Positions 11,440-14,107 of a stretch of DNA of 20,000 nt are shown in pieces (within the stretch, counting starts at the first letter, position 1; each line of letters starts with the position of its first letter). The notes under the pieces were generated by a model, which saw nothing but the letters and a program-made list of their open reading frames with translations, had not been told where the DNA came from and did no database searches. The stretch lies in the IMG/VR virus record IMGVR_UViG_3300017747_004058, one strand, 5' to 3'. Both the position numbers and the translations under genes were made by a program. The stretch is from an uncultured virus (IMG/VR IMGVR_UViG_3300017747_004058) (taxonomy: Duplodnaviria > Heunggongvirae > Uroviricota > Caudoviricetes).

Positions 11440-11955
11440 ATGAAAGACTTACAAGTAAACCTAAGAACTTGGGAATTCATCGAGCCGGCCAAGCGCAAAA
11501 AGCTCAAAGTCGGCCGAGTGGTGAACCAGTACCAACTTTTGGAAATCATGAAAGAAGCCAAGGACCCGCAGTTCGTGAATCCGCGTTCGCCTTCGAGCGT
11601 GTTTGCAACCGGAAAGCTGCGAGTGCGGTGTCTTTTGTGCGGCAAGGAGCGCATGATCCCGCGATGCAAGTTCATGCCCACGAATCCTGGCCAGTCCTAC
11701 TATGCGTGCTGCCAGCGCCGGCCGCGCAAAGATCCCAACAAGCTCATGGGCCGGCCGCTGAGCATTGGCGTGATTGGCAAGCAGTTCGGCTCACTTCGGG
11801 CGGTCACCTGGGAGCCCAAAGTTGGCTGGGAGTGTGAATGCGTTTGTGGGCGTGTTTGCAAAGGGATTAAAACTTTCCGGCTGACCCGCGGGCTGGTGCG
11901 CTGTCCTGAGTGCGGGGCCGGGTCGGGTCCGGGCGCGGAGGGGGTGATGCCCTAG
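11440..11955 (+). CDS. Cys-rich protein with two zinc-binding modules of the type found in phage HNH/AP2 proteins
   Basis: IGKQFGSLRAV..WECECVCG..L.RG..CPEC plus a degenerate N-terminal copy (VGRVVNQYQLL..VRCLLCG..ACC). AAGGA RBS; no HNH motif seen. Confidence 0.7.
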   Translation: MKDLQVNLRTWEFIEPAKRKKLKVGRVVNQYQLLEIMKEAKDPQFVNPRSPSSVFATGKLRVRCLLCGKERMIPRCKFMPTNPGQSYYACCQRRPRKDPNKLMGRPLSIGVIGKQFGSLRAVTWEPKVGWECECVCGRVCKGIKTFRLTRGLVRCPECGAGSGPGAEGVMP

Positions 11956-12117: not shown

Positions 12118-12153
12118 AAAAAATACCGGGCGCCTTATAGGGGCTGCCCGGTA
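12118..12153 (-). terminator. Rho-independent terminator of the leftward small-gene operon
   Basis: Minus strand TACCGGGC...GCCCGGTA stem followed by TTTTTT. Confidence 0.8.
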
Positions 12154-12196
12154 GGGGTTTTAGGGATTGGTTTTGGTGGGCTGGGCCTGGGGTGTT

Positions 12197-12568
12197 TTAC
12201 TCGTCGTCGTCTTGGTCCCAATTGGCCCATTGGATAGCGCTGCCGCGTCGGCTGAACCATATGTCTACATGCGATATCCGGTCAAAGCATACTGGGTGCT
12301 GGCTAATCGTGCGAGCTAACCTGCGGGCGCGGTGTTCGTCTCGGGTGCGGTCGTACGCGATTACCTCCAGGGCACCGTTTATGCGTTCGTCGCAGTCTCG
12401 ACATTGAAACGCTATTAGGCCAGCTCTTAGGGCGTCGTTCTTGCTCTGGAATCCCATGTTTAGCGCGTGGTGGGTATGGTGCTGTCCTGGGGGCGTGAAG
12501 ATTATGCGGCCATTGCGGGTCATGAATCCACATAGGTATTCCGGGGGATAAAAGGTTTTTAGCGTCAT
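12197..12568 (-). CDS. Hypothetical protein (123 aa)
   Basis: Last ORF before the terminator; His cluster and a CxxC. Confidence 0.65.
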   Translation of the reverse strand: MTLKTFYPPEYLCGFMTRNGRIIFTPPGQHHTHHALNMGFQSKNDALRAGLIAFQCRDCDERINGALEVIAYDRTRDEHRARRLARTISQHPVCFDRISHVDIWFSRRGSAIQWANWDQDDDE

Positions 12569-12574
12569 GGGGAC

Positions 12575-12778
12575 CTAGGGGCGGACTGCTTTCCAGTCGG
12601 TGTGGTGCTTTTCCCGCTGGTCTTGGAGCTGTATAGTTTTCAGCATGGCGGCGCGGCTGGGGAATTCCTTAAAGGTGACGTCAAAATTTAGGCCGCTGTT
12701 TTCTCGGCGTGCGGTGCGGTCTGGGTGCCTGGGTGTGTGGGTTTGAGCTGCTGCGAAACTGAGGGTGTAGGTTTCCAT
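12575..12778 (-). CDS. Hypothetical protein (67 aa)
   Basis: Start reassigned to ATG 12778 (METYTL...) with SD AGGAG at 12795-12791. The track's GTG start lies inside the ribozyme. Confidence 0.65.
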   Translation of the reverse strand: METYTLSFAAAQTHTPRHPDRTARRENSGLNFDVTFKEFPSRAAMLKTIQLQDQREKHHTDWKAVRP

Positions 12779-12797
12779 GGGGTGCGGGTTCTCCTGA

Positions 12798-12863
12798 TAC
12801 CGCGACACCCAAAGAGTGTTTAACTTCTTGGGTGTTTCGTCCTAACGGACTCGTCAGGCGGTA
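12798..12863 (-). ncRNA. Type I hammerhead ribozyme
   Basis: UACCGC-CUGACGA-GUCC(GUUA)GGAC-GAAA-CACCCAA(GAAGUUAAACACUCU)UUGGGUG-UC^GCGGUA. All core nucleotides present, stems I/II/III pair, GUC triplet. Predicted cut between 12804 and 12803. Confidence 0.95.
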
Positions 12864-13129
12864 GGGGTGGGGGCGGGTTCCTGGCTGGGTTTGTCGTCTT
12901 CCTGATCCTGCTCAATTAACGGGTCTGGGTCGTCGGGTTCGTCTTCCTCTCCGTTTTGGCCGTCTTGTTCTAGCAGGTCTTTTACGGTCATGCCTTCTAG
13001 GTCTTGGTTTCCATCGACGTCGAAACCTAACAGGCGTTCCAGGTCACTTAAGCTGTCCCAATACGTGTGTTGGAATTGGGCGCATAGGTCTAACTGCTTT
13101 TGGGCGTCGGCGCGTTCTTGGGTGGTCAT
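12854..13129 (-). CDS. Highly acidic small protein (91 aa)
   Basis: Start reassigned to ATG 13129 (MTTQER...), AAGGAG RBS, ATGA overlap. About 26 D/E versus 5 K/R. Confidence 0.75.
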   Translation of the reverse strand: MTTQERADAQKQLDLCAQFQHTYWDSLSDLERLLGFDVDGNQDLEGMTVKDLLEQDGQNGEEDEPDDPDPLIEQDQEDDKPSQEPAPTPTA

Positions 13130-13545
13130 GGTTTGGTATTCTCCTTGGGGGTTGGGTTGTTTGGGTTGTTTGGGTTGGTTGGGGGGTTCGTGGCCTTGGG
13201 GTATAGGTCCGCCGGAGCTGGTCCCAACATGCCTAGCACTTGCTGGGCGATCTCGGCTAGTTCGGGCGTCATGTGTTCTAGTGCTTCCCGAACTAAATAT
13301 TCCAACTGGTTCGCGTGGGCGAATAGCACTGCATTCCGCGCGTAATAGGGATCGCGTTTCCGGGTTCCTGGGTCGGTTAGGTACACCATGGCAAGCGCTG
13401 CCCACGTTCCAGGGCGTAACAGGCGTGCGGGACTGGTTTCGTTGCTGAGCGTTAATGGTGCGGGCATGCCTAGCGCGTGCCAATAGTCGCGTGTGCGTTG
13501 TTCTTCTTCGCTCAATGGGCACGGTGGGTCTGGTTGGCGTGGCAT
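13126..13545 (-). CDS. Hypothetical protein (139 aa) with N/P-rich tail
   Basis: Operon packing; AGGA upstream. Confidence 0.65.
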   Translation of the reverse strand: MPRQPDPPCPLSEEEQRTRDYWHALGMPAPLTLSNETSPARLLRPGTWAALAMVYLTDPGTRKRDPYYARNAVLFAHANQLEYLVREALEHMTPELAEIAQQVLGMLGPAPADLYPKATNPPTNPNNPNNPTPKENTKP

Positions 13546-13548
13546 GGG

Positions 13549-13761
13549 TTATAGGTTCCTTGTGATGACTGCTTGCTTGTATTCCTTGGCGCGTTTGCCC
13601 TGCATGGGAATAAAGCAACAATCTATAGCCCGGTCGGCGATGTAGCGGCGGAGTTCGTGACCGTCCCATTGTTCGGGCATGTCTGGGACCTTGGCGAGAA
13701 TATCTCGCTTAAGGGTGGTCATTAGTTCGTTAATAAATCGGCGCTTTTCTTGCTGGGTCAT
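13549..13761 (-). CDS. Hypothetical protein (70 aa)
   Basis: TAATG coupling with the upstream gene. Confidence 0.7.
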   Translation of the reverse strand: MTQQEKRRFINELMTTLKRDILAKVPDMPEQWDGHELRRYIADRAIDCCFIPMQGKRAKEYKQAVITRNL

Positions 13762-14060
13762 TAGCCTACCCTCATGGCGCGCTTAAGGATTTCCAGGGCG
13801 GCGCGGGCTTTGGTCATGCTGGCGTCAACCTTGGCGCGGTAGGCTTCCCATTCTTCCACGCCTCCTAGGTCTTCGGGGGCGTGGGGGTCGTCCTGGTAGT
13901 TGTCCCAGTCGTCGCGGGCGCGATTATAGGCGTCTTGTAATGCTTCCATATGCTGGGGGGTAAGCTTAGCGGCCCATAGGCTGCGGGCTTTGGTATCTGG
14001 TTTGGGGGGCTTGGGCGTCTTGGGTGCCTTGGCCTTGCTGGTCTTCTTGGGTGCTGTCAC
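13761..14060 (-). CDS. Hypothetical protein (99 aa) with K/P-rich N-terminus
   Basis: GTG start with TAAGGAG RBS. Confidence 0.75.
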   Translation of the reverse strand: MTAPKKTSKAKAPKTPKPPKPDTKARSLWAAKLTPQHMEALQDAYNRARDDWDNYQDDPHAPEDLGGVEEWEAYRAKVDASMTKARAALEILKRAMRVG

Positions 14061-14107
14061 TGGGTTCTCCTTAAAGGGTCTTTACTGGGGTCTTTAACTG
14101 CTGGGTA

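Follow-up and report, generated by a model that had tools for sequence, protein, structure and literature searches.

The DNA considered here is a 20,000-nucleotide stretch from an uncultured virus of the Caudoviricetes (IMG/VR record IMGVR_UViG_3300017747_004058), referred to below as the window, and the part of interest is a junction within a long run of genes on its minus strand. The gene upstream of this junction encodes a 91-residue acidic orphan protein (12854..13129, minus strand; called gene P0001), which probably starts at the ATG at 13129, preceded by an AAGGAG; the open reading frame to which it belongs spans 12854..13669 on the minus strand, and ends at a TGA (12856-12854) that lies inside the core of a hammerhead ribozyme motif. 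The ribozyme is what occupies the 75-nt gap between this gene and the next, which is a called gene for a 67-residue protein (12575..12778, minus strand, ATG at 12778). This is followed in turn by a gene for a 123-residue orphan protein (12197..12568, minus strand), the last minus-strand gene before the block is ended by a convergent, HNH-like ORF of 171 residues on the plus strand (11440-11955; the match, to phrog_374, is a weak one with E 4.6e-4). The ribozyme is in the coding orientation of the gene run. Given this shared orientation, and given also that no promoter- or terminator-like site was found on the minus strand from 16300 to 12300, it can be inferred that a single transcript crosses the junction, and the ORF map fits the suggestion made in an earlier reading of the sequence alone (hereafter the sequence-only reading) that cleavage would release the last two genes, i.e. 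those for the 67- and 123-residue proteins that precede the convergent HNH-like gene.

In a search of 5.8 billion proteins the 91-residue protein matched itself only, and the 123-residue protein likewise matched itself only in the protein collection. The C-terminal half of the former is very acidic, with runs of Asp and Glu. Among small phage proteins of strongly acidic character there are some that act as DNA mimics or counteract restriction, and it would be speculation to suppose that the 91-residue protein might be of this type. Hammerheads flanking ardA were described by Perreault et al. 2011 (PMC3088659). As for the 67-residue protein, it belongs to a conserved family of small proteins that has no assigned function, within which it has 8 homologues at 48-62% identity; the loci encoding family members number at least 46 (36 metagenome and 10 viral), the metagenomes being from soil, sediment and freshwater. 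An alignment of the family (A2) contains an invariant P-x-H-P-[ED]-R-T-A motif. No Pfam family was found for these proteins, and the one candidate considered, Pterin_4a, was rejected on the basis of a score of 17.8 bits (cut-off 26) seen in one of nine members.

Read directly from its letters, the minus strand from 12863 to 12798 (66 nt) is a complete type I hammerhead, the parts of which follow one another in the order UACCGC / CUGACGA / GUCC-GUUA-GGAC / GAA / ACACCCAAG-(13 nt)-UUUGGGUGU / C / GCGGUA. The first of these, the 5' strand of stem I (12858..12863), doubles as the codons for the final residues, (P)TA, of the upstream ORF, and it is followed immediately by the core residues C3-A9, CUGACGA (12851..12857), within which U4G5A6 (12856-12854) are, according to the ORF list, the UGA stop of the 91-residue ORF. 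Stem II consists of four pairs between GUCC and GGAC (12850-12847 with 12842-12839) and is closed by the loop GUUA (12846-12843), the A of which is at 12843. Beyond this lie the core residues G12 A13 A14 (GAA, 12836..12838) and then stem III, which from both the reading and the descriptor has nine pairs, including A15.1-U16.1 (12835-12827 with 12813-12805), and a 13-nt loop. C17 is at 12804, so that the position deduced from the hammerhead consensus for the cleavage site is between C17 12804 and G1.1 12803. The 3' strand of stem I, GCGGUA (12798..12803), is the 5' end of the predicted 3' product; next to it is an unpaired U1.7 at 12797, which faces C 12864 and is a candidate partner for the loop II A at 12843, and then, 2 nt past stem I and 8 nt past the predicted cut, comes an SD-like AGGAG (12791..12795) for the downstream gene. 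All of these features are on the minus strand.

The criteria used for accepting a hammerhead, which concern the core letters, the core-adjacent pairs and the exclusion of multiple mispairs from short stems, are those of the methods of Perreault et al. 2011 (PMC3088659). The core letters CUGACGA, GAA, A15.1-U16.1 and C17 are all present; the pairs C2.1-G1.1, G10.1-C11.1 and A15.1-U16.1 are formed, as parts of stems of 6, 4 and 9 contiguous pairs; and the topology is that of type I, both ends being on the open stem I while loops close stems II and III. On re-reading of the minus strand the letters and coordinates given by the sequence-only reading proved to be correct throughout, and with them its claim of a type I hammerhead with all core letters and three stems, its observation that the UGA at 12856-12854 serves both as the stop of the acidic ORF and as the UGA of the core, and the start that it predicted for the 3' product, GCGGUAUC-AGGAG.

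A generic descriptor was applied to both strands to look for type I and type III hammerheads, the minimum length being 4 bp for stem I, 2 bp for stem II and 3 bp for stem III. It has a single match in the window, namely the hammerhead at 12863-12798, and gave 15 matches in 1500 dinucleotide-preserving shuffles, or roughly 0.01 per window. With a strict descriptor (stems of at least 6, 4 and 6 bp), there were 0 matches in 1500 such shuffles. As regards folding energies, the hammerhead fold comes to -27.1 kcal/mol and the minimum free energy (MFE) to -27.5 kcal/mol, and this gap of 0.4 kcal/mol implies that the hammerhead fold is competitive even without tertiary contacts; the MFE z-score is -3.64. 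For a 191-nt precursor, the thermodynamic MFE structure is predicted to have the strands of stem I paired elsewhere. A separate local feature is a weak hairpin between GCGG, part of the stem I 3' strand, and CCGC at 12786-12783 (overall 12783-12803, minus strand), which has the SD in its loop and is predicted both in the precursor and in the 3' product.

The sequence-only reading had proposed a search with the Rfam hammerhead models as a check, and when this was run the curated thresholds were not reached: there were no matches at gathering score, and over the whole window neither a hammerhead nor any other ribozyme appeared at E <= 1. In a search restricted to 351 nt, the best matches were to RAGATH-1-hammerhead (RF03152; 23.2 bits as against a gathering score of 56.3, E 0.1), aligned to model positions 25-77 only with positions 1-24 unmatched, and to Hammerhead_3 (15.9 bits), while the type I model RF00163 (gathering score 34 bits) is absent from the list at E <= 10, in which clan overlap keeps only the best match. 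This failure carries little weight, because in a sensitivity control just two of 21 comparable phage type I copies (from 20 loci) reached the gathering score of RF00163. Compared with the type I hammerheads of RF00163 the element in the window has the same topology and the full core, and differs from them in its long stem III (9 bp with a 13-nt loop); as compared with RAGATH-1, which is the best Rfam match, it has no counterpart of the first 24 model positions, and its stem II is a normal 4-bp helix.

A much closer comparison is available from other viral contigs. These were scanned using as the pattern the core and stem II of the window, any letter being allowed at N7 and in the loop and 20 letters being fixed, which defines a survey of one stem II sequence only and which yielded at least 127 loci having the same core and stem II. 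The unique sites among the matches listed number 121, of which 73 are of type I (this figure including the window), 40 are of type III and 8 are unclassified. Of the 72 other type I copies among the matches listed, 61 have a stem I of 6 bp and 63 have a downstream ORF of at least 40 codons, the start codon of which lies 20-50 nt past the cut in 52 of the 63 cases (median 31 nt, the corresponding figure for the window being 26 nt); 37 copies among the matches listed have an SD-like motif. From the 64 unique non-window type I copies among the matches listed, 56 were aligned (alignment A1), the remaining 8 being dropped for having spans outside 52-66 nt. Within these 56 aligned copies the pairing of stem I amounts to 98.2% and each of its six pairs varies on both sides, although the copies had been selected for having four or more stem I pairs, a bias from which only the fifth and sixth pairs are exempt; slid controls were about 30% paired. 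A covariance model (R1) built from the same 56 copies, with the window left out, finds as its sole site in the window 12865-12795, at 49.4 bits and E 3.6e-11, a score that is inflated because 20 of the letters are those of the search pattern that was itself taken from the window. The window has what characterises this large phage family, namely a 6-bp stem I, GUCC/GGAC with GUUA, and a complementary A and U, and its layout too is that of the family, with the upstream stop at the core UGA and an ATG 26 nt past the cut.

The proteins encoded on either side of these hammerheads are very diverse, falling (among the matches listed) into 48 clusters for 65 downstream proteins and 53 clusters for 60 upstream proteins, and comparison with PHROGs brought out no functional theme downstream of the 72 hammerheads among the matches listed, most of the assignments being "unknown function", with a few matches to RNA polymerase and MazG-like proteins. 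In three of 20 hammerhead-bearing viral loci a Twister-P5 motif exceeding its Rfam gathering score was seen no more than about 1.3 kb away from the hammerhead (L063:2571-2627, plus strand; L030:1199-1253, minus strand; and L047:1390-1444, minus strand); the co-occurrence of hammerhead and Twister-P5 in phage gene blocks is known.

The survey also bears on a tertiary contact that the sequence-only reading had proposed for the window, where the fourth position of loop II is A (12843) and N1.7 is U (12797). According to the account in PMC11875169 of the work of O'Rourke et al. 2015, an unpaired U that lies 7 nt past the cut contacts position 4 of a loop II that reads GUGA or GUUA. The two bases are present here, and the proposal is backed both by its agreement with that account and by covariation in the 56 aligned copies: among the matches listed, the combination of loop II position 4 with N1.7 is A and U in 22 copies, G and C in 14, U and A in 11, and something else in 9, so that the two positions (columns 23 and 64 of A1) are complementary in 47 of the 56, and for the unique copies with a 6-bp stem I, the window included, the corresponding figure among the matches listed is 52 of 54. 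Such counts must be read with the reservation that the lineages are fewer than the copies, because many of the G:C copies share one and the same stem I sequence. Covariation among A:U, G:C and U:A would not be expected from a fixed A-U Hoogsteen pair alone, and to judge from these sequences the interaction between loop II and N1.7 in those phage type I hammerheads whose stem I has 6 bp looks like a single tertiary pair of Watson-Crick type rather than a fixed A-U Hoogsteen pair. The minimal fast hammerheads of O'Rourke et al. 2015 (again as described in PMC11875169) have in common with the window a 6-bp stem I, an unpaired U1.7 and GUUA on a 4-bp stem II, but those constructs are engineered and trans-acting, whereas the window contains a natural element acting in cis.

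As to the history of the ribozyme at this particular junction, a canonical hammerhead was found, on either strand, in none of the 46 loci that encode relatives of the 67-residue protein, and in most of these relatives the gene follows at -4 to 54 nt behind the upstream ORF. A blastn search of 12150-14100 against phage and plasmid records gave no match, and no relatives among the viral contigs were reached by way of the 91-, 123- and 323-residue proteins. Three freshwater DNA metagenome runs, from three studies and perhaps including the source sample, contain contigs that show no difference from the window over the parts they cover and accordingly gave no variants, and no RNA run was listed among the sequencing runs in which the stretch occurs. 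With an orphan upstream protein and a hammerhead in 0 of the 46 loci, true orthologues provide no covariation, and the check suggested by the sequence-only reading, whether related phages conserve the stop/core overlap, has no orthologous copies to which it could be applied. Since the 91- and 123-residue proteins are without homologues in the collection and none of the 67-residue loci carries a hammerhead, the ribozyme is a sporadic acquisition of this lineage. That agrees with the remark of Perreault et al. 2011 (PMC3088659) that the genes flanked by such elements are not constant. The idea that the ribozyme takes the place of a promoter present in the relatives was rejected, promoter-like sites having been found ahead of the homologous gene in 3 of 38 unique relatives, as compared with 28 of 620 control windows.

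The sequence-only reading had singled out as a special feature the sharing of one UGA between the upstream stop codon and the ribozyme core, and here the family tells against it. For the 72 other type I copies among the matches listed, the upstream ORF was assigned as whichever stop-to-stop frame was longest among those having 50 or more codons and terminating between -150 and +60 relative to C3 (a crude form of gene calling, applied to loci of which about a third have only 300 nt of flank), and on this rule the upstream stop is the core UGA itself in 14 copies, lies 1-13 nt 5' of C3 (within the stem I 5' strand or next to it) in 30, lies more than 13 nt upstream of C3 in 11 and lies downstream of the core UGA in 4, the remaining 13 having no qualifying upstream ORF. 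The 14 core-UGA cases form 12 groups by similarity of their flanking proteins (again among the matches listed). Put another way, where an upstream ORF could be assigned its stop is at -13 to +1 in 44 of 59 copies among the matches listed, and overlap between stop and hammerhead is therefore common, not special, in the gene-junction ribozymes of this phage family. It is proposed that stop and core come to share a UGA because genes are tightly packed around an element that always contains one. Among the papers searched, none was found that discusses stop codons inside phage hammerheads, and the term "stop codon" occurs 0 times in the main text of Perreault et al. 2011 (PMC3088659). The stop in the window (minus strand) has the context UGA-C. 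In E. coli, UGA-C is a leaky stop context. There is also an in-frame UAG three codons past the UGA (CGA GUC CGU UAG; 12842-12853, minus strand), inside stem II and loop II, as a result of which read-through would add just three residues.

The reading that we prefer, to which a probability of roughly 0.8 may be attached on the sequence evidence described so far, is that this is a functional type I hammerhead between two minus-strand genes, and that it cuts itself between C12804 and G12803. On transcription of the gene block, the RNA would fold as a three-way junction and self-cleave at this point. The 5' product would then carry the complete 91-residue ORF with its UGA, the stop being 50 nt before a structured end, which would come directly after stems II and III and, by the general chemistry of hammerheads, should bear a 2',3'-cyclic phosphate. 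The 3' product would begin with a 5'-OH, would have the SD (AGGAG, 8 nt in) within a leader of 13 nt, and would comprise the last two genes. Thereafter the two pieces would presumably decay and be translated independently of one another, and sharing of the stop with the core would at most delay folding while a ribosome was terminating. Processing of long phage transcripts into gene-length mRNAs by such elements was proposed by Perreault et al. 2011 (PMC3088659), and an independent fate for the cut pieces is the role put forward both there and in a review (PMC6765202).

A more elaborate view would have cleavage gated by translation: a ribosome terminating at the core UGA would lie over the core together with the 5' side of stem I and some of stem II, so that folding and cutting could occur only if the upstream ORF were not being translated, and whether the last two genes were released would depend on upstream translation. 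The geometry on which this depends is real enough, since U4G5A6 is itself the stop codon and the final codons of the ORF supply a strand of stem I, and the same or nearly the same overlap recurs in 44 of the 59 assignable copies among the matches listed (14 at the core UGA, in 12 contexts, and 30 at up to 13 nt upstream); in addition, the weak hairpin predicted between GCGG (12803-12800) and the downstream CCGC could sequester the 3' strand of stem I if its 5' partner were occupied. However, the offsets of the stops are spread (from -13 to +1 and in some cases further, with 11 copies among the matches listed at more than 13 nt upstream), which looks like packing rather than a fixed register. 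Natural hammerheads are fast and their cleavage is irreversible, which means that ribosome-free seconds should suffice for it and that gating would amount to a delay, not a switch. For these reasons gating of this kind is considered unlikely, and, given that the overlap recurs in 44 of 59 copies among the matches listed, any such effect would be one belonging to the whole class.

Similarly improbable is that cleavage activates translation, with the intact junction hindering the 30S subunit until the cut and the release of stem I switch on the 67-residue gene. Such a role would suit the position of the SD, 2 nt past stem I and 8 nt past the cut, and the fact that the start codon in this family is typically 20-50 nt past the cut (among the matches listed), but the SD is outside the ribozyme and its predicted probability of being unpaired averages 0.8 in the 191-nt precursor and the 3' product alike; masking of the SD by secondary structure was not seen in the predicted folds either before or after cleavage. 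Finally, that the motif is a chance match or an inactive, decayed relic is very improbable indeed: the Rfam thresholds are unmet, no conserved orthologous copies of the ribozyme were found, and the loose descriptor does match shuffled sequence, at about 0.01 per window, a rate to be set against the very many windows read, but against this the core is intact, the stems are of 6, 4 and 9 bp with 0 strict matches in 1500 shuffles, the stem I length, tertiary pair, stem II, orientation and start distance are all typical of the family, and 19 of 21 comparable phage copies also fall short of the gathering score of the Rfam type I model.

Returning to the preferred reading of a self-cutting junction element, it is clear where this belongs among known systems. 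Hammerheads flanking single genes or short gene blocks in phages and prophages have been known since 2011, when gene-flanking prophage examples were shown to cleave in vitro (Perreault et al. 2011, PMC3088659), and type I hammerheads are listed by De la Pena's group as DNA-encoded motifs of bacteria and phages (PMC13725137); the one in the window is a further example. It has in common with those described by Perreault et al. 2011 (PMC3088659) the canonical core, a position between phage genes on the same strand, and variable neighbours. The same paper describes an archaeal-virus example situated 13 nt before a start codon, and reports a mapped 5' end within 3 nt of the cleavage site of that archaeal-virus hammerhead; it also highlights clusters of hammerheads, whereas there is one hammerhead only in the 20-kb window. 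What prokaryotic and phage hammerheads do is called an open question in two reviews (PMC6155905, PMC6765202).

Being a single locus, the junction described here gives a known class one more well-formed member, this one from a freshwater phage. The wider value of the analysis lies in the tally that accompanies it, according to which, for 44 of 59 comparable copies among the matches listed, a ribosome terminating at the upstream stop would be positioned over the ribozyme. It could be, although the idea must be rated as more doubtful even than gating at this one junction, that placement of the stop in stem I or the core has been selected across the junction hammerheads of phages, the terminating ribosome holding the ribozyme unfolded. 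If that were true, cleavage and the fate of the downstream cistron would report on translation of the upstream one, and a stop codon and a ribozyme would between them make up a sensor that needs no protein.
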